DNA of 43,085 nucleotides from the IMG/VR virus record IMGVR_UViG_3300006201_000477; one strand, written 5' to 3'. The number at the start of each line of letters is the position of its first letter. The stretch's first letter is position 1. The DNA comes from a virus. The position numbers and the translations under genes are program-made. A model generated the notes under the pieces. It had not been told where the DNA came from, searched no databases, and saw nothing but the letters and a program-made list of their open reading frames with translations. Positions 1-43,085 of this stretch are shown in pieces.

Positions 1-22
1 ATGTAATTCCTCCTAAATTACT
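1..22. repeat. Terminal direct repeat; identical to 43064..43085
   Basis: ATGTAATTCCTCCTAAATTACT occurs at both window ends. A near copy lies at 591..612. Confidence 0.9.
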
Positions 23-123
23 TTTATCTTATTTTTCTAGCTTTATAATTTCTTGTTCTAGCATTGGCTTCCCTCCTTTTTTATGGTAAAATAAAGTATT
101 ATTATATTTATCTTCATTTTACC

Positions 124-173
124 GATTCAAATTGAATCTCTTTTACTTTTATTATAGTGATTCATTTTGAATC
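124..173 (+). promoter_or_regulatory. Cassette A control region: two GATTCA-N3-TGAATC palindromes flanking a TATAGT -10
   Basis: GATTCAaatTGAATC at 124..138 and GATTCAtttTGAATC at 159..173. TATAGT is at 153..158, upstream of the 198 start. Confidence 0.55.
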
Positions 174-197
174 TGTCAAGTATTTTTAGGAGGACAT

Positions 198-428
198 ATG
201 AAATTCCATGAACGCTTACGTGAACTTCGCCAAAATTCTTCTCTCATGCAAAAAGAAATTGCTGAATCTATAGGGGTATCCATTATCACCCTTCGACAAT
301 ATGAGCAGGGAAAACGTGAACCAAATATTGAAAAATTATTGAAACTAGCTATAATATTTGATGTATCCTTGGACGATTTATTATGTTTGGAAGATTTTAA
401 AAATTCTCTCTCAAATTCCTCTGATTGA
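198..428 (+). CDS. XRE-family HTH regulator (cassette A, plus-strand partner)
   Basis: 76 aa, with AGGAGGA at 188..194. HTH core is QKEIAESIGVSIITLRQYEQGKREP. Paralog of 737..973 and 42675..42911. Confidence 0.85.
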   Translation: MKFHERLRELRQNSSLMQKEIAESIGVSIITLRQYEQGKREPNIEKLLKLAIIFDVSLDDLLCLEDFKNSLSNSSD

Positions 429-588
429 TATGAAATAAATCTTCTAATGCATCCCATATCTTAATCGATCCAATACGTTTACCAGATTCAATTTGTCTAT
501 AACCTATTTCACTTATCTTTAAATGATCTGCAACCTCTTTCTGCGTCATGCCCGCCTTCTGGCGGGCTTCTTTCAAGTTCTTTCTCAT
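397..588 (-). CDS. XRE-family HTH regulator (cassette A, minus-strand partner)
   Basis: 63 aa, starting MRKNLKEARQKAGMTQKEVADHL. Its 3' end overlaps 198..428 by 32 nt. Paralog of 933..1124 and 42832..43062. Confidence 0.85.
   Translation of the reverse strand: MRKNLKEARQKAGMTQKEVADHLKISEIGYRQIESGKRIGSIKIWDALEDLFHINQRNLRENF
550..567 (+). terminator. GC hairpin (GCCCGCC-TTCT-GGCGGGC) followed by TTCTTTC; plus-strand-specific terminator candidate inside the minus-strand CDS
   Basis: A perfect 7-bp GC stem in an AT-rich genome. A U-rich tail follows only on the plus strand. The same stem recurs at 1086..1103 and 43024..43041. Confidence 0.5.
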
Positions 589-656
589 AACATAAATTCC
601 TCCTAAATTAACTATCCTTTTTTCTTATTACCTCCTTTACATGTTCAATTAATACG

Positions 657-671
657 CGTGCACATTGCACG
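657..671 (+). promoter_or_regulatory. Cassette B operator candidate CGTGCA-N3-TGCACG
   Basis: Perfect 6-N3-6 palindrome upstream of TATAAT at 685..690. A degenerate second copy, CGTACAattTGAGCA, follows the -10. Confidence 0.45.
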
Positions 672-736
672 TTTATTATATCTATATAATAGCGTACAAT
701 TTGAGCATAGTCAAGTATTTTTTAGGAGGAAATAAA

Positions 737-973
737 ATGTTCGGTAAAAGGCTTCGCTCTATGCGTATGAAACGTAATTTTACTCAGCCACAACTAGCAG
801 ACATGCTTGATATTGCATTGCGCACATATCAAGGATACGAAGGAGAAACTCGTTCTCCCTCTTTCGATACTCTCATTAAAATGGCGGACATATTAGATGT
901 CTCTCTTGATTATCTCTTAGGAAGAGATGACTTCATGAAAGCTCACGCAATATCCTTTGATGAATACCTGTAA
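737..973 (+). CDS. XRE-family HTH regulator (cassette B, plus-strand partner)
   Basis: ATG at 737 is preceded by AGGAGGA at 724..730. The track ORF start at 665 is an unlikely N-terminal extension. HTH core is QPQLADMLDIALRTYQGYEGETRSP. Confidence 0.85.
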   Translation: MFGKRLRSMRMKRNFTQPQLADMLDIALRTYQGYEGETRSPSFDTLIKMADILDVSLDYLLGRDDFMKAHAISFDEYL

Positions 974-1124
974 TATCTTCCAAAGTATCCCAAATTACAA
1001 AATCCCCTGTTCTTTCTCCTGCCTCAATATTTTGATAATATCTGAGGCTTATCTCTAATTTATCTGCCATATTCTGTTGTGTCATGCCCGCCCTCTGGCG
1101 GGCTTCTTTCAGGTTCTTTCTCAT
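933..1124 (-). CDS. XRE-family HTH regulator (cassette B, minus-strand partner)
   Basis: 63 aa, starting MRKNLKEARQRAGMTQQNMADKL. Overlaps 737..973 by 41 nt. Confidence 0.85.
   Translation of the reverse strand: MRKNLKEARQRAGMTQQNMADKLEISLRYYQNIEAGERTGDFVIWDTLEDITGIHQRILRELS
1086..1103 (+). terminator. GC hairpin (GCCCGCC-CTCT-GGCGGGC) followed by TTCTTTC; cassette B copy
   Basis: Same stem as 550..567. The loop differs by one base. Confidence 0.5.
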
Positions 1125-1146: not shown

Positions 1147-1833
1147 TCACCCTAAATATGCTAACGCACTTACTACTTGCAGCCGCTTTTTGCAATCCTG
1201 ATATATGTTCTTGTAATTCTTCCCTTCCATGATCCCATCATTAATTACGCATAAAATAACATGTTCTAGCAATGACAAGTTATTAATCTGTGTTATGGTT
1301 GCTTCCTCTCTGTTAGAAATGCCTGCCATCTTGTTTGCAAGTTTAGAATATGTCATATATAGCTTGTCAGAATGAGTACTTCCCTGTCCCTTGGCATATT
1401 CCACCAGCCTTTGAATGGTGTCTGTTTCTGCCCGCCTGGTAAGCTTTCCTTCTCTTCTGCTTTCTTCCCATGCCAAAGTTGACCTTTCTCTTATGATGGA
1501 TTCCATTTCGTTAAAAGCTTCAATATACTTCCATTTCCATTCAAGGGCTTTCTTTCCTGTAAAACCCATCGCTAAAATAGAAAATCCATCACGATTCATT
1601 TCATACATTTTATTGAACTTTCCAGAACTGTCTTTATATGATTTTTCTTTGAATGACTGACCCCATTTTTGGGGTGAGCTATCATTTTTAATCTGTTCAA
1701 TTGCTCTCAATACCCTGTCATGCCGCTTTCCAAACTTCTCTGCTACCTGTAAGCTGTCACAAACAGCCTCATCATTTTTTAGATAAACTAACCCTTCTAT
1801 AATTTCATCTCCTTTACACAAAATTTTTTCCAT
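1147..1833 (-). CDS. Rha-family phage regulatory protein / antirepressor
   Basis: The N-terminus VAEKFGKRHDRVLRAIEQI matches the Rha signature. The C-terminal part resembles ORF6C/Ant-type domains. Confidence 0.75.
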   Translation of the reverse strand: MEKILCKGDEIIEGLVYLKNDEAVCDSLQVAEKFGKRHDRVLRAIEQIKNDSSPQKWGQSFKEKSYKDSSGKFNKMYEMNRDGFSILAMGFTGKKALEWKWKYIEAFNEMESIIRERSTLAWEESRREGKLTRRAETDTIQRLVEYAKGQGSTHSDKLYMTYSKLANKMAGISNREEATITQINNLSLLEHVILCVINDGIMEGKNYKNIYQDCKKRLQVVSALAYLG

Positions 1834-2674: not shown

Positions 2675-2884
2675 TTACACTTTTATATTTTCAATACCAA
2701 CACCAACTTTATCACAAATTCGAACAATTTCAGAAAACCCCGCACTACCAATATTTTTTTCGTATCTACGATATGTAGTATACGGAATACCAACAAACTT
2801 GGCAAACTTTTCTTGGGTCATTCCTGCTATTGCTCGTACCTCTGCAAGTGTTACTTTTCCTGTTATTTGTATATTTTTATTCAT
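2675..2884 (-). CDS. Cro-like XRE HTH regulator
   Basis: 69 aa with HTH core MTQEKFAKFVGIPYTTYRRYEKN. Divergent from the CI-like gene. Confidence 0.8.
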   Translation of the reverse strand: MNKNIQITGKVTLAEVRAIAGMTQEKFAKFVGIPYTTYRRYEKNIGSAGFSEIVRICDKVGVGIENIKV

Positions 2885-2905: not shown

Positions 2906-3019
2906 TGTCCATTTTCGGTCATATTATTATATTATCATCTATTTTATAATGTGTCAACCCAAAAACGGTCAAATATTTAAAAAATAAATATTGCAATCTG
3001 TCCATTTTTGGATTATAAT
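2906..3019. promoter_or_regulatory. Lysogeny/lysis switch: back-to-back divergent promoters with operator repeats
   Basis: Plus strand: TTGCAA at 2991..2996, a 17-nt spacer, TATAAT at 3014..3019. Minus strand: TTGACA (complement of 2952..2957), a 17-nt spacer, TAATAT (complement of 2929..2934). Operator-like sites: TGTCCATTTTCGGTCA at 2906..2921, TGACCGTTTTTGGG (complement of 2958..2971) and TGTCCATTTTTGGA at 2999..3012. Confidence 0.65.
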
Positions 3020-3046
3020 ATTAACATACAAATATGGAGGATATTA

Positions 3047-3469
3047 ATGACAGAATCAGACCTTGAATTATATGGAATCGTAGGAAAAATGTTTCGTGAA
3101 ATACGCGAAAGCAATGGTCATACACTGGAATATGTATCTAATTTTTTAGGAATTGCTCCAAAATCCTTGCAACGTTACGAATGTGGAGAGAGAAAAATAA
3201 AAGTAGAAACAATAAAATCTCTTTGTGAATTTTATAACATAAATTGTTCTTCTTTTATGAAAGAAGCCAAAACACGTTTTATTGCTGGTATTCAATCAGA
3301 ACACAAGGAAAATAATACCACAAAAGACCTAACAAATGATAAACGATTGCAAGAAATTATTGATTGCTATTATAATATGTCAGAAGAAGGAAGAGACCTT
3401 TTGTCAAAACAAGCAAAATTTTATTTAAGTGAATATAAAATAACAAAAATAGACGAAAGGGCAATGTAA
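3047..3469 (+). CDS. CI-like XRE repressor
   Basis: ATG at 3047 follows GGAGG at 3036..3040. N-terminal HTH (LEYVSNFLGIAPKSLQRYECGERK) plus a C-terminal extension. Confidence 0.8.
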   Translation: MTESDLELYGIVGKMFREIRESNGHTLEYVSNFLGIAPKSLQRYECGERKIKVETIKSLCEFYNINCSSFMKEAKTRFIAGIQSEHKENNTTKDLTNDKRLQEIIDCYYNMSEEGRDLLSKQAKFYLSEYKITKIDERAM

Positions 3470-4330: not shown

Positions 4331-4455
4331 ATGTCTAAAGAATTCTTTATTTTATACAAAATACAAATTAAAATTATAGAAATGTAGAACAACAAAATTC
4401 TATTTGAAAAATCTAACTTATGATAAACCATGATAATTACAAAAGGAAGTGTACT

Positions 4456-5082
4456 ATGGGATTTCATTTTAAAAAAAGTATTAAAATTGCACCTAGTATA
4501 AAATTAAACTCTAATCAATACTCACTAGCACAGAAGAATTTAAAAAATGTCAAAACACCCAAATATCCTTTCCTTATTACTGGAATTATATGCTTCTGGG
4601 TGTGTTTTCTTGTTGCTTGTGGAACAAATAATATGAGTACTAATACTACTTCAACACCTCAAACAACAACTCTTTCTGAAACAGAAACAATAAAAGAGAC
4701 AAATAGTATTCTTACAATGTATACAACTGCTGCCCTCAACGTAAGAAGTGGTCCTGGTACAGATTATTCTATACTGACAACATTACCTACTGGCTCTGCA
4801 GTAAATATTATTGACAAACAAGACGACTGGAGCGAAATAGAATATAATTCCGAATCTGCATATGTTTTTACTAAATATTTATCTGATTCCAACACAGTAG
4901 AAGTTGCCAGTGAAGCCCCATCTGAAACAGAAAAAAGTGCCCCTGTTACAATGGTATGGATACCATATTCCGGTTCAAAATACCATCGTAGGCAATCATG
5001 CAGTGGTATGAAAGGACCCTCTCAAGTATCATTAGAAGAAGCAATTAGAAGAGGATATTCTCCTTGTAAAAAATGTTATTAA
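4456..5082 (+). CDS. Membrane-anchored SH3b-domain protein with DUF4236-like N-terminus and C-terminal Cys/His motif
   Basis: MGFHFKKSIKIAP resembles the DUF4236 start. One TM segment follows. The SH3b-like region is LNVRSGPGTDYSILTTLPTGSAVNI. The C-terminus reads YHRRQSCSGM...SPCKKCY. Confidence 0.65.
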   Translation: MGFHFKKSIKIAPSIKLNSNQYSLAQKNLKNVKTPKYPFLITGIICFWVCFLVACGTNNMSTNTTSTPQTTTLSETETIKETNSILTMYTTAALNVRSGPGTDYSILTTLPTGSAVNIIDKQDDWSEIEYNSESAYVFTKYLSDSNTVEVASEAPSETEKSAPVTMVWIPYSGSKYHRRQSCSGMKGPSQVSLEEAIRRGYSPCKKCY

Positions 5083-5134: not shown

Positions 5135-6106
5135 ATGTATAAAATAGAAGAAAAATTGCTTGAAAAATCTAAGGAAGCGTTTTGCCTCGCAATAGAATTA
5201 TATAACAAGCCAACAATAAAATACCGTTTAGAAGGATTCAGCCATTTTATTTGTAACGCTTGGGAATTAATGTTAAAATCATATATGATAAAACTTTGTG
5301 GTGACAGTAGCATATACTATAAAGATAATCCTCAAAGAACTTTATCATTAGAAAATTGTGTACAAAAAGTATTTACCAATAATAAAGATCCTTTACGAAT
5401 TAATCTGGAAAAAATTATTGAATTACGTAATACAAGTACACATTTCATTACGGAAGAATATGAAATGGTATATATTCCTTTGTTCCAAGCATGTGTGTTT
5501 AACTTTAATGAAAAAATGATGGCATTTCACAACATTGACATGACAAATATTATCCCACAAAACTTTTTAACGTTATCTGTTAGTATGAAAGCTCTTGATG
5601 AAGCTGAAATAATAGCTAAATATCCAGAGCCTATTGCCACTCATTTGATCGATCTCAAAAATTCTGTTGATCATTTATCCATTAATAATAATGCAAAATT
5701 TGCAATAAGAATAGACCATTATCATTACATTACTAAAAACAAAGATAAAGCCACCAATATTGTACATTTTGACAAAAATGCCGACTCTGGCATAACGATT
5801 GTAAAGGAACTTCAAGATCCAAATAATACACATAAATATACTGCTAAATCTTGTATTTCTACTATTAAAGAAAGATTACAGAGAAAACATATTGAACTTA
5901 TATACAATGGAAAATCAACCAAATTTACAAGCTTTCACTTTATCAATTTTTGTAAATACTATCATTTAAAAGAAAATGAAAAACTATGTTATATTCATAA
6001 ACAATTTTCAACTCCACAATATTCATATTCACAGCAAATGATTGATTTTATAATAGATGAAATTATAAAAGATCCTGTAAACATACTGGATAACATAAAA
6101 AAATAA
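5135..6106 (+). CDS. DUF3644-like protein (accessory, possible defence-related)
   Basis: The N-terminus LEKSKEAFCLAIELYNKPTIKYRLEGFSHFICNAWELMLKSYMI resembles the DUF3644 signature. Confidence 0.55.
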   Translation: MYKIEEKLLEKSKEAFCLAIELYNKPTIKYRLEGFSHFICNAWELMLKSYMIKLCGDSSIYYKDNPQRTLSLENCVQKVFTNNKDPLRINLEKIIELRNTSTHFITEEYEMVYIPLFQACVFNFNEKMMAFHNIDMTNIIPQNFLTLSVSMKALDEAEIIAKYPEPIATHLIDLKNSVDHLSINNNAKFAIRIDHYHYITKNKDKATNIVHFDKNADSGITIVKELQDPNNTHKYTAKSCISTIKERLQRKHIELIYNGKSTKFTSFHFINFCKYYHLKENEKLCYIHKQFSTPQYSYSQQMIDFIIDEIIKDPVNILDNIKK

Positions 6107-6319: not shown

Positions 6320-7795
6320 ATGAAAAATGGTGCCCTATACATTCGCGTCAGCACTCATATGCAGGATGAGCTTTCCCCTGACGCCCAAAAACGGCTCCTT
6401 CTTGATTACGCCAAAGCAAACCATATTATTGTATCTGAAGATTATATCTTTGAAGAAAAAGGGATTTCTGGGAAAAAAGCTGATAAGAGGCCGCAATTCC
6501 AGCAGATGATTGCTCTTGCCAAAACAAAGCCCACTCCCTTTGATATTATTTTAGTATGGAAATTCTCACGCTTTGCCAGGAACCAAGAAGAATCTATTGT
6601 ATATAAATCTTTGTTAAAGAAACAAGGCGTTGAAGTCCTAAGTGTAAGTGAGCCTGTAGCAGAAGGCCCTTTTGGGAGCTTAATTGAACGTATTATTGAA
6701 TGGATGGATGAATATTACTCTATCCGCCTCTCTGGCGAAGTTATGCGGGGCATGACAGAAAAAGCCCTGCGGGGTGGCTATCAGGCAAGCCCGCCACTTG
6801 GATACCGCATGGACATTCCCAAAAAACCACCTGTTATTGTACCTGAAGAAGCTGCTGCCATCCGTTATATTTTTGATGCCTATGCTAACCAGAACAAAGG
6901 AATCTTTGAGATAGCACGCGCTTTAAATGAAATGGGTTATGAAACGCAACGCCACAAACCATTTGAACGCCGTTCTGTAGAATACATACTTCAAAATCCT
7001 ATGTACTGTGGCTTGCTTAGATGGAATAGACATTGTAATGAGACAAATGAGATTAAAGATGAATCTGAATGGATTATCCGAAAAGGGGAACATCAGGCAA
7101 TTATTTCCGAGAATTTATTTAATAAAGCCCAAGAACGTTATTATACTGAATACAAGCCAAAAGGGGCAAGGCCTTCTAGCACTTATAAACATTGGCTATC
7201 TGGCCTTGTAAAATGCCCTGCCTGTGGCCGTACCATGATTGCTAAAGCAGTAAAATCTTCAGGAAGAATCCTATTCTATTTTACTTGTTATGGATATAGT
7301 AAAGGAAAATGTGCCGCCAAAACTTCAGTTGCTGCTACTAAGTTAGAGCCTGCTGTGCTCTCTTCTATCCAAGAAGCCTTCCAGGCAGAAACCTTTTCCT
7401 ATAGCAATCTTATCTCCCCTAGGCAGCCTGAATCTACTTCTGCAGAACAAAAACGTATTAACGATTTAATCCACAGAGTTACTTTTAAGGAACAGCGTGC
7501 CCGTGACGCATATATCAATGGTATTGATACTATGGAAGAATATAAAAAGAACAAGCTTCGGTTACAGGAAGAACGGCAGCGGCTAGAAGAAAAACTTGCC
7601 CTTCTCTCTCCTATTAAGCCGAATCTTTCCCCTTCAGAAGTAAAGCAGCTAATGCAAAAACGCTTGAAAAGTGTCTATGATGTGCTTCTATCTAATGCTG
7701 ATATTCCCACGAAAAACTCTACGCTCAAAAATGTAGTAGAAAAGATTATCTATAATAAAGAAACAGATACGGTAAAGCTCTATTACTATTCTTAA
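6320..7795 (+). CDS. Large serine recombinase (integrase)
   Basis: Resolvase catalytic N-terminus (ALYIRVSTHMQ). A recombinase domain follows, then a Cys zinc ribbon (CPACGR...CYGYSKGKC) and a C-terminal coiled coil. Confidence 0.95.
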   Translation: MKNGALYIRVSTHMQDELSPDAQKRLLLDYAKANHIIVSEDYIFEEKGISGKKADKRPQFQQMIALAKTKPTPFDIILVWKFSRFARNQEESIVYKSLLKKQGVEVLSVSEPVAEGPFGSLIERIIEWMDEYYSIRLSGEVMRGMTEKALRGGYQASPPLGYRMDIPKKPPVIVPEEAAAIRYIFDAYANQNKGIFEIARALNEMGYETQRHKPFERRSVEYILQNPMYCGLLRWNRHCNETNEIKDESEWIIRKGEHQAIISENLFNKAQERYYTEYKPKGARPSSTYKHWLSGLVKCPACGRTMIAKAVKSSGRILFYFTCYGYSKGKCAAKTSVAATKLEPAVLSSIQEAFQAETFSYSNLISPRQPESTSAEQKRINDLIHRVTFKEQRARDAYINGIDTMEEYKKNKLRLQEERQRLEEKLALLSPIKPNLSPSEVKQLMQKRLKSVYDVLLSNADIPTKNSTLKNVVEKIIYNKETDTVKLYYYS

Positions 7796-42280: not shown

Positions 42281-42577
42281 CTAAATAATTGCCCTTGTTT
42301 CATATGTTCCTAGCTCAAAATAAGGGCAGGTATCTTCTGGCACAGGATTCTTCTTTCTTCCCTTACTAACCGGAACTTGGCATATGCAATGTCCATAATT
42401 AATTGGAATATATGTTTCCTGCCCCTCTTTCCTGTAATGCTGAATGTAATTCTTACAATACTGGCAGCTCTTTGGTTTCAGAACTTTATTCTGCTCTATT
42501 TTGCTGTTAAGTCCTTCCAGAGCACTTCTTAAGGCTCTGTTTTCTCTTTCTAGCCTTATAATTTCTTGAGCTAACAT
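42281..42577 (-). CDS. Hypothetical coiled-coil / Cys-motif protein
   Basis: 98 aa with GGAGGG upstream. A truncated copy of its 5' end lies at 29..80. Confidence 0.55.
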   Translation of the reverse strand: MLAQEIIRLERENRALRSALEGLNSKIEQNKVLKPKSCQYCKNYIQHYRKEGQETYIPINYGHCICQVPVSKGRKKNPVPEDTCPYFELGTYETRAII

Positions 42578-42593
42578 CGGCTTCCCTCCTTTT

Positions 42594-42648
42594 TACATAC
42601 ATTTTGTATGTAGATTCCTTATTTAGACTATAGTACATTTTGTATGTA
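42594..42648 (+). promoter_or_regulatory. Cassette C control region: TACATACA-N3-TGTATGTA palindrome, a partial second copy, and a TATAGT -10
   Basis: Palindrome at 42594..42612. TATAGT at 42629..42634. Partial copy GTACAtttTGTATGTA at 42633..42648. Confidence 0.5.
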
Positions 42649-42674
42649 ATGTCAATAATTTTTTAGGAGGATTT

Positions 42675-42911
42675 ATGTTTAATACACGTTTACGCTCTTT
42701 ACGTATGAAACGAAAATACACCCAACAAAACATGGCTGATATGTTACAAGTATCATTAAATGCTTACCAAAAATATGAACAAGCTGAACGTTCTCCATCT
42801 CTTGATTGCCTTGTCAAATTAGCTGATATACTTAATGTTCCAACCGATTTTTTACTTTGCCGTGATGATTTTCTGAAATCTCTCGGAGTTTCCGTTGATG
42901 AATACCAGTAA
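42675..42911 (+). CDS. XRE-family HTH regulator (cassette C, plus-strand partner)
   Basis: 78 aa with AGGAGGA at 42665..42671. HTH core is QQNMADMLQVSLNAYQKYEQAERSP. Confidence 0.85.
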   Translation: MFNTRLRSLRMKRKYTQQNMADMLQVSLNAYQKYEQAERSPSLDCLVKLADILNVPTDFLLCRDDFLKSLGVSVDEYQ

Positions 42912-43062
42912 TATCCTCTAATGTATCCCAGATAACAACATCACCTATTCTATCTCCTGCTTCTATCTTCTGATAATACACAAGGCTGATATTTAATTTA
43001 TCTGCCATCTGTTGCTGTGTCATGCCCGCCTTCTGGCGGGCTTCTTTCAGATTTCTCCTCAC
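42832..43062 (-). CDS. XRE-family HTH regulator (cassette C, minus-strand partner)
   Basis: 76 aa with a GTG start and AGGAGG upstream. The protein begins RRNLKEARQKAGMTQQQMADKL. Overlaps 42675..42911 by 80 nt. Confidence 0.8.
   Translation of the reverse strand: MRRNLKEARQKAGMTQQQMADKLNISLVYYQKIEAGDRIGDVVIWDTLEDITGIHQRKLREISENHHGKVKNRLEH
43024..43041 (+). terminator. GC hairpin (GCCCGCC-TTCT-GGCGGGC) followed by TTCTTTC; cassette C copy
   Basis: Hairpin identical to 550..567. Confidence 0.5.
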
Positions 43063-43063
43063 T

Positions 43064-43085
43064 ATGTAATTCCTCCTAAATTACT
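43064..43085. repeat. Terminal direct repeat; identical to 1..22
   Basis: 22/22 identity with the window start. Confidence 0.9.

Follow-up and report, generated by a model that had tools for sequence, protein, structure and literature searches.

Convergent, 3′-overlapping XRE gene pairs with apparently matched DNA specificity in the early region of temperate phages from gut Clostridia

Only a few model phages have had their control of lysis and lysogeny worked out in detail and, to our knowledge, almost none of these well-studied phages come from the dominant gut Firmicutes. Here, we analyzed a 43,085-nucleotide (nt) stretch of viral DNA (IMG/VR record IMGVR_UViG_3300006201_000477; hereafter, the window) that carries three consecutive cassettes, each pairing a plus-strand gene, p, with a convergent minus-strand gene, m. 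Both genes encode small helix-turn-helix (HTH) proteins of the XRE type and overlap at their 3′ ends, and a predicted outward promoter (P_out) fires away from p on the m strand. The lambdoid CI/Cro switches (lambda, 434 and P22 immC) resemble the cassettes in having two HTH regulators that act on the same operators, which for the cassettes is predicted. They also share operators, likewise predicted for the cassettes, that overlap a strong lytic and a weak repressor promoter diverging from one short region, as well as many heteroimmune types in which proteins and operators co-vary. Unlike cI and cro, however, the cassette genes converge with a 3′ overlap rather than diverging from the operators, and m lies upstream of P_out and is not transcribed from it; P_out instead drives the next gene, which may be a small gene that we call z, an antirepressor gene or the next m. 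In further contrast to CI, p is a single domain of 76–78 amino acids without a cleavable or oligomerization domain, and the cassette, located within the early operon, supplements a canonical cI/cro pair and occurs in series of up to five. Among the hallmarks of the CI/Cro group, computation thus recovers shared operators, whereas divergent genes and a sensor domain are absent.

Other described systems share individual features with the cassette. The P22 immI region (Mnt, Arc, Ant and the sar RNA) is likewise a secondary immunity region in which a small maintenance repressor gene diverges from a strong promoter, with overlapping promoters, and it too combines two small paralogous repressors with an antisense RNA layer and antirepressor cargo, the last of which is often found with the cassettes. 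The P22 proteins, however, are ribbon-helix-helix (RHH) repressors in a divergent and operon layout, and the Arc and Mnt operators differ, whereas the cassette pair is XRE (or RHH-like in some loci), convergent, overlapping and apparently matched in specificity. In P2 and 186, as in the cassettes, lysogenic and lytic transcription are opposed, so that polymerase collision can couple the two states; the P2 and 186 promoters stand face-to-face, their transcripts overlap by tens of nt at the 5′ ends and their regulators bind different sites, whereas in the cassette the overlap is between the 3′ ends of whole genes, with a p transcript that would cover almost all of m. The lambda OOP RNA/cII pair and "excludon" antisense arrangements resemble the cassette in that a convergent transcript over the 3′ part of an early gene could allow mutual down-regulation. 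The cassette differs in that its antisense RNA would be the mRNA of a repressor paralogous to the target, with the terminator inside the target's coding sequence. The RstR proteins of CTXphi are also small XRE repressors whose allele-specific operators set immunity types and which occur in arrays of different alleles, but rstR diverges from rstA and has no convergent partner. The RstR model NF041951 is the best NCBIfam match for p, although at 65.8–69.7 bits for p1–p3 and 29.6–33 bits for m1–m3, against a cutoff of 80 bits, the cassette proteins are not members. Finally, in the TF-smORF modules of plasmid-like phages, an XRE-like factor activates a counter-oriented small open reading frame (ORF) whose product inactivates cI (PMC10432266). 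The similarity lies in an XRE-like factor beside a counter-oriented small ORF in a variable, exchangeable locus; the cassette differs in having a consensus promoter, for which repression is expected, and a second XRE gene that overlaps the first. We also considered a type II toxin–antitoxin system with an XRE antitoxin (HigA-, MqsA- or HipB-like) and rejected it: there is no toxin gene, the sole partner being the opposite-strand XRE gene, and the HipB and MqsA models match far below their cutoffs. PADLOC returned generic HTH models only (HTH_VI, the RmrA N-terminus, capH and a control protein) and no partner genes, and PHROGs, NCBIfam and PADLOC gave just generic HTH or repressor labels. A full-text search of the literature turned up no account of phage XRE pairs that converge and overlap. 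The cassette layout is widespread and, within the scope of that search, undescribed; functionally, it would work like CI/Cro or P22 immI, with the convergent logic of P2/186 and OOP.

In the window, the plus-strand genes lie at 198..428 (p1, 76 amino acids), 737..973 (p2, 78 amino acids, with its own AGGAGG ribosome-binding site) and 42675..42911 (p3, 78 amino acids). The minus-strand genes lie at 397..588 (m1, 63 amino acids), 933..1124 (m2, 63 amino acids, 22 nt downstream of a Rha-family gene) and 42832..43062 (m3, 76 amino acids, with a GTG start). The first-pass annotation, made from the sequence alone, had listed these six XRE ORFs with 3′ overlaps of 32 (p1/m1), 41 (p2/m2) and 80 nt (p3/m3). 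The ORF list and Pfam confirm it: all six proteins match HTH_3 (PF01381) at 34.6–53.5 bits (34.6 bits for m2), against a gathering threshold of 23. The alignment of the cassettes that it had proposed extends over their full length (~0.55 kb) with 72% mean column identity; at the protein level, the p proteins are 36–58% and the m proteins 62–83% identical to one another. Each p consists of the HTH_3 domain and a tail of ~15 amino acids, with no C-terminal oligomerization or cleavage (S24) domain. The sequence motifs said to unite each set are present, but the LDxLL tail of the p proteins is the generic end of the HTH_3 domain. The minus-strand motif MRKNLKEARQKAGMTQ is conserved, yet partly under nucleotide-level constraint, because it encodes the embedded hairpin described below. 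The order of elements along the minus strand is Rha, m2/p2, P_out(2), m1/p1, P_out(1), m3/p3, P_out(3), and then z and the replication genes.

To place the window in a broader context, homologous loci were collected with m3 as bait, giving 68 loci from IMG/VR and 80 from species-representative genomes (148 in all), with ORF starts chosen heuristically. Nearly all derive from Lachnospiraceae and related gut Clostridia, and several are from cultured isolates, among them Faecalicatena contorta JCM 6483 (L139), Lientehia hominis NSJ-141 (L106) and Laedolimicola ammoniilytica (L094), with two cassettes each. Of the long-ORF coding downstream of the cassettes, 86% falls on the m strand, in agreement with the earlier proposal that m follows the direction of the early operon and p opposes it. 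The same proposal had pictured the cassettes as stacked, face-to-face switches. This part does not hold, as the promoters are not face-to-face and the best-conserved element is an outward promoter divergent from p, located directly upstream of each p ribosome-binding site on the opposite (minus) strand. P_out(1) (179..151, minus strand) reads TTGACA-17-TATAAT, a 12/12 match to consensus, and points into m3 across the circular junction; P_out(2) (714..686, minus strand; TTGACT-17-TATTAT, 10/12) points away from p2 into m1; and P_out(3) (42655..42627, minus strand; TTGACA-17-TATAGT, 11/12) points into z and the replication genes. Across the family, 135 of 138 unique cassettes have GTCAA at 22–59 nt ahead of the p start, preceded at a distance of exactly 17 nt by ATTATA; this pair corresponds to TTGAC(A)-17-TATAAT on the m strand. 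The consensus match is at least 10/12 in 122 of these cassettes and perfect in 36. P_out therefore appears, by its predicted sequence, to be a near-consensus sigma-A promoter firing downstream.

The sequence between and beside these promoter hexamers is hypervariable and palindromic across loci, with at least 12 operator types. The candidate operators of cassette 1, GATTCAAATTGAATC (124-138) and GATTCATTTTGAATC (159-173), share the palindrome GATTCA-N3-TGAATC and are its only exact matches in the genome (0.15 expected by chance), with one extra single-mismatch match at 7051. Cassette 2 has a perfect palindrome, CGTGCACATTGCACG (657-671; CGTGCA-N3-TGCACG), and a hybrid, degenerate copy, CGTACAATTTGAGCA (693-707), in the P_out spacer; this copy was read directly from the sequence and agrees with the family pattern. 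Cassette 3 has TACATACATTTTGTATGTA (42594-42612) and TACATTTTGTATGTA (42634-42648), in which TACAT-N5-ATGTA occupies 42598-42612 and 42634-42648. The geometry is shared: one palindrome lies in the 17-bp spacer of P_out and the second 35–36 bp downstream, at roughly +8 to +26. No exact copies of any cassette's operator motif were found elsewhere in the 43-kb genome. The cassettes were first described as separate switch-like units, and operator pairs unique in the genome, together with the matching p and m recognition helices described below, agree with that description. Most p2/p3-type cassettes carry a constant GTACAAT as the left half of the spacer operator regardless of the cognate half-site (e.g., window 693-707); TACAAT occurs in the spacer operator of 67 of 135 cassettes and may be the −10 element of a p promoter or the site of another factor. 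In cassette 3, the −10 region (42627-42634) is the palindrome ACTATAGT, with TATAGT on both strands, and the outward and p promoters may thus share overlapping −10 boxes.

When cassettes were sorted by operator type, the recognition helices of both p and m changed with the operator and resembled each other within a cassette. In cassette 1 of the window, for example, the helices are TLRQYEQGKR (p1) and GYRQIESGKR (m1); in cassette 3, they are SLNAYQKYEQ (p3) and SLVYYQKIEA (m3); and an example pair from across the loci is LRHYQKYESGEIEP in p with LRHYQKIEYGEIGG in m. In a joint p/m alignment, mutual information peaks at the recognition-helix columns (up to 1.5 bits) and is low at other, equally variable columns. 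A permutation test over 47 non-redundant specificity classes counted 185 identical residues within cassettes at nine helix positions, compared with 120 ± 6.4 after shuffling, and none of 5000 shuffles reached the observed value. Eleven variable control positions showed no excess (88 identical residues versus 93 ± 6). One helix position illustrates the trend: where the outer operator bases are CAC[TC], p has Arg and m has Lys in 20 of 20 cassettes, whereas in all other operator types both proteins have Gln at that position in 107 of 115. The simplest reading of this covariation is that p and m read the same operators and have been selected for a common target, as CI and Cro are. Gene conversion between p and m was considered as the source of the likeness and rejected, because conversion would homogenize all positions and the excess identity is confined to the recognition positions.

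A second conserved element is a terminator-like hairpin embedded in the m coding sequence. It lies on the plus strand at 550..575 in cassette 1 (GCCCGCCTTCTGGCGGGC then TTCTTTCA; minimum free energy (MFE) −16.8 kcal/mol), at 1086..1111 in cassette 2 (GCCCGCCCTCTGGCGGGC then TTCTTTCA) and at 43024..43049 in cassette 3 (GCCCGCCTTCTGGCGGGC then TTCTTTCA), in each case within codons 5–13 of m1, m2 and m3, respectively. The hairpin GCCCGCCYTCTGGCGGGC has a perfect 7-bp stem made entirely of G and C, a 4-nt loop and the tail TTCTTTCA, and is located in the m codons for LKEARQKAG. The intrinsic-terminator pattern of a GC-rich stem-loop and a U-tract on the transcribed strand is found at 550, 1086 and 43024 on the plus strand. 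The U-tract is on the plus (p) strand only, so the hairpin reads as a terminator for p alone. The genome has a GC content of 37%, and the codon series GCC CGC nnn nnn GCG GGC is expected at a frequency of ~8e-5 from window codon usage or ~3e-3 from the usage of the fetched loci. This codon set nevertheless occurs in all three m genes of the window and in most homologues, while flanking codons vary synonymously. Lineages that lost CGC have lost GCG too, and some of these show alternative small hairpins. Folding of the p strand of 135 unique m 5′ regions gave a median MFE of −14.4 kcal/mol and a median z score of −3.0 relative to synonymous recoding, with 73% of the regions below the 5% quantile of that null. 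These patterns point to selection on the hairpin at the nucleotide level. The predicted p transcript of ~400 nt would contain p followed by the antisense of m to about codon 5, ending short of the m start and the upstream genes. Antisense or transcriptional interference, raised in the first-pass annotation as one possible function, fits a terminator-like hairpin that lets p transcripts cross almost all of m. A search of Rfam 15 with positions 1–1400 gave two matches only, both far below the gathering score.

The pairing of p and m is a general property of the family. A p-type XRE gene converges on 156 of the 167 homologues of m from within 500 nt, and for 150 of them the two 3′ ends overlap, by a median of 68 nt across loci. 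Public data hold at least 1,181 clusters of m at 90% identity, all annotated merely as helix-turn-helix regulators. A search for single-cassette relatives, as had been proposed, showed that 112 of 131 loci with a cassette carry just one, while 13 carry two and 6 carry three, so that about one-seventh have two or three; a close relative of the window, L151, carries five. The array is consequently not a one-off, as single cassettes are common and arrays recur. Nor are the cassettes recent tandem duplicates: in 20 multi-cassette loci, none of 34 within-locus pairs share a p recognition helix or an operator half-site (p–p identity 31–58%), and the arrays are therefore heterospecific stacks rather than fresh duplications, stacked and swapped via recombination in the conserved 5′ end of m. 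The sole exception seen is in L151, where cassette 3 and z are duplicated around another cassette.

Relatives that are 98–99.96% identical to the window differ only in which cassettes they carry and how many. The phage L001 lacks cassette 1 and has an extra, different cassette (X) and a second z, whereas L152 has cassette X in place of the window's cassette 3. Breakpoints between these near-identical phages fall in the conserved 5′ segment of m, which consists of the ribosome-binding site and ~26 codons (~100 nt) and includes the hairpin. A protein identical to p1 is encoded on more than 23 other contigs (23+), including an unrelated phage background, and an unrelated phage of the AntA type (L149 and others) shares the p1/m1 cassette in identical form. 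Given the differing content of near-identical phages and this shared p1/m1 cassette, the cassettes are mobile between phages. They are not always strictly adjacent: the overlapping loci L085 and L128, on one contig of a metagenome-assembled genome (CAMUAR010000063.1), hold four cassettes over ~9 kb with other genes between them. A blastn search (distant mode) of positions 1–1300 against GenBank phages gave no match, and tblastn of m2 gave only a partial, 38-residue match in Faecalibacterium phage Lelie and one unannotated record among GenBank phages and nothing among plasmids; no deposited phage or plasmid record had a close homologue. In Lelie (PP479942.1, 31.4–32.3 kb; L159 in our set), downstream of orf40 and orf41 comes a small orf42 in convergent orientation, adjoining orf41 but not overlapping it, and this trio may be a distant relative of the cassette layout.

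The same layout is also found with what appears to be another fold. At least 13 loci have convergent, 3′-overlapping pairs of RHH-like proteins of ~50–80 amino acids beside XRE cassettes (L149 4550-4898; L023 3180-3585; L082 4781-5156; L092 4262-4574; L137 8914-9226; L147 6878-7286; and others), with Pfam matches to RHH_1, Arc and RHH_4 that are sub-threshold only. The two members of a pair share an N-terminal β-strand motif (KIQTGLRI/KIQTGLRI or STQIRL/ATQIRI), which is the element that reads DNA in the ribbon-helix-helix fold. These convergent pairs recall Arc and Mnt of P22. Because the same wiring has seemingly been built twice from different folds, this suggests that the layout, and not the protein family, is what selection maintains.

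The three-cassette array crosses the circular junction of the window, which forms a circle of 43,063 bp with an exact 22-nt terminal redundancy (43064-43085 = 1-22). A string resembling this 22-mer recurs near position 600, and closure was therefore checked with independent contigs found via the exact p1 protein. L151 (JGI 3300006217) gives an unbroken match from 42278 through the junction to 2285 at 99.6% identity; L152 (JGI 3300006145; a 43.6-kb contig from another sample) matches from 43008 to 4428 at 99.96%; and L158 matches 114-2014 at 100%. L001 was rejected as proof of the junction, as its alignment stops inside the repeated 22-mer, and a 53-nt exact junction pattern had no match in IMG/VR. 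The location of the contig ends in a repeated region with an overlap of only 22 nt had left room for an assembly artefact, and the plus-strand ORFs might have been chance antisense ORFs. Both notions are now vanishingly improbable and already refuted: with 99.6–100% identity, three independent contigs of other samples span the junction or the array, arrays are also present in the cultured isolates Faecalicatena contorta JCM 6483 and Lientehia hominis NSJ-141, and every p ORF scores above the Pfam thresholds. The array is real, and the artefact against which the first-pass annotation had cautioned is not the case.

The window is a temperate phage genome, with a large serine recombinase/integrase (6320-7795), a GH25 lysin and an SPP1-type portal. 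Its ORFs and Pfam matches include a canonical divergent switch of a cro-like gene (2675-2884, minus strand) and a cI-like gene (3008-3469, plus strand). The Rha-family phage regulatory gene (1147..1833, minus strand; Pfam Phage_pRha, 107 bits) lies immediately upstream of m2. Downstream of the cassettes are z, a cell-wall hydrolase homologue, a Lin1244/DnaD-like replication gene and a methyltransferase gene. The lysogeny module also contains a restriction-endonuclease-like gene with DUF3644 and EC042_2821 matches (5135-6106, plus strand), located between an SH3-domain gene (4420-5082) and the serine integrase gene, that is possibly a prophage-borne defence or moron gene.

P_out(3) reads first into z (42281..42577, minus strand), which encodes 98 amino acids with an N-terminal coiled coil and four invariant Cys residues (C38, C41, C64 and C84). 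Across loci, the gene most commonly found directly after P_out is a z homologue: blastp clustering gives this arrangement in 80 of 128 unique cases, and jackhmmer in 72 of 151. In the remaining cases, an antirepressor gene of the Ant/ORF6N/Rha type or the next m often takes this position. No family assignment for z was obtained from Pfam, PHROGs, NCBIfam or PADLOC, and its AlphaFold model is of low confidence (predicted local distance difference test score 65 overall and ~55 in the Cys-rich part). A z scar (29..101, minus strand) lies between cassette 1 and m3 and is made up of an 11-codon remnant ORF, MLEQEIIKLEK* (64..29), and a leader, as recognized from alignment to 42548-42597 and homology to the second z copy of L001. 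The ancestral repeat unit is therefore m-p-z.

We consider it probable, though by no means assured, that the cassette is a compact, exchangeable two-repressor "slave" switch inserted between the immediate-early genes (cro and Rha/antirepressor) and the replication genes. The sequence itself shows how the cassette is built and conserved, that p and m carry a signal of shared specificity and that the hairpin is under selection; from these we infer the steps of the mechanism. In the lysogen, p would sit on the operators, keep P_out shut and autoregulate at a weak promoter overlapping P_out. The p transcript would run antisense over m and stop at the terminator-like hairpin in m codons 5–13, and this antisense transcription could also damp stray m expression. 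Once the prophage is induced or a cell is infected, polymerases from the main early promoter would cross m and p, producing m and blocking p expression through polymerase collision and RNA pairing. The m protein would then bind the same operators in a Cro-like manner and keep the p promoter off. Since p has no sensor or cleavage domain, convergent transcription would be what couples the cassette to the main CI/Cro switch, which would explain why 90% of cases retain the 3′ overlap. In the window, three heterospecific cassettes in series would form a relay of three independent locks leading from Rha to z and the replication genes and, secondarily, the three repressor specificities could act in trans on incoming phages. 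Several points weigh against this reading. An m protein that occupies both operators would be expected to repress P_out too, which leaves the release of P_out unaccounted for. The p promoter has two weak candidates, each matching at 7–8/12 and neither preferable, namely TACAAT inside operator copy 2 or a −10 element overlapping that of P_out. All promoters and terminators are consensus or pattern matches, and the promoter/operator geometry of the p1-type subfamily differs in detail. The covariation tests draw on related sequences, with redundancy reduced rather than phylogeny modelled, and collection with m3 as bait biases the frequency of variants lacking p or m.

The slave switch must also be weighed against other accounts of the same parts. 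That the cassettes are chiefly superinfection-immunity determinants, with the p of a prophage shutting the matching P_out of incoming phages of the same type, is the main rival; we regard it as doubtful, and equally so the extension in which arrays are stockpiles of specificities under frequency-dependent selection and internal regulation is secondary. Much of the diversity is in keeping with it, including the many operator and helix types, the 0 of 34 within-locus pairs in 20 loci that share either, the differing cassette content of the near-identical phages L001, L152 and L151, the identical p1 in an unrelated AntA-type phage and the RstR heteroimmunity repressor subfamily as the best, albeit below-cutoff, NCBIfam match of p. 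However, 112 of 131 loci have a single cassette, which implies that the unit must have a function of its own, and an incoming phage could express the downstream genes by read-through from its own early promoter. The absence of shared types in 34 pairs is only weakly below chance, for which a rough estimate is ~2–3, and neither the conservation of m nor the convergent overlap is explained by immunity. An emphasis on heteroimmunity is nonetheless compatible with the cassette mechanism. A different functional unit, in which p is joined by the small gene that follows P_out, seems unlikely. Such an induction module would resemble P22 immI (Mnt/Ant) or TF-smORF, with p controlling an antirepressor or small protein whose action inactivates the main repressor. 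The frequent presence of a z homologue or an Ant/ORF6N/Rha-like antirepressor directly after P_out, the small size of z with its coiled coil and four invariant Cys, and the published TF-smORF logic (PMC10432266) fit such a module. On the other side, z has no recognizable family and a low-confidence model, and two of the three window cassettes have no z, with P_out feeding the next m. Moreover, z is independent of cassette type, as cassette 3 and cassette X are both followed by almost the same z (L001, L151), and the published factor is an activator, whereas the consensus promoter of the cassette needs none.

Two further alternatives concern individual elements of the cassette. The embedded hairpin might be a recombination hotspot or cassette boundary, or an element for m mRNA stability or translation, instead of a terminator. 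Breakpoints do fall in the conserved m 5′ segment that holds it (the overlap zone of L001 and ~43008 in L152), and the stem can form in the m mRNA too. We nevertheless find this rather improbable, as the U-rich tail is on the p strand only and ~100 nt of conserved sequence suffices for ordinary homologous recombination with no special site; the terminator and the recombination or mRNA-element roles are in any case not exclusive. The m protein, for its part, might act not on DNA but as an anti-repressor that neutralizes p via inactive heterodimers. Both proteins are single XRE domains able to pair, and m is more conserved than p (m–m 55–87%, p–p 31–58%). The recognition-helix positions of m, however, track p and the operator while its other variable positions do not, and a protein that never reads DNA is not expected to show such helix covariation. 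We therefore set aside an m that acts by heterodimerization alone, which is highly unlikely, and retain the slave switch as the preferred reading.

Taken more broadly, we tentatively suggest, at clearly less than even confidence, that the cassettes of gut Lachnospiraceae phages exemplify a previously unrecognized class of exchangeable, convergent, 3′-overlapping repressor pairs of matched specificity (XRE or RHH-like), which would be slaved by convergent transcription, carry a lysogenic terminator in the lytic gene and be swapped or stacked via their hairpin-bearing 5′ end as multi-specificity immunity locks that turn over between otherwise identical phages. The cassette is common, with more than 1,100 m protein clusters in public data and representatives in cultured Lachnospiraceae isolates. 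Its wiring is unlike that of textbook switches in its apparently shared operators, its proposed coupling by convergent overlap and its predicted terminator inside a coding sequence. As engineering parts for Clostridia, one could draw on dozens of natural, orthogonal repressor/operator/promoter sets. How fast heterospecific cassettes turn over among near-identical phages suggests an immunity arms race in the gut which, if true, would help explain polylysogeny and phage exclusion in this environment.

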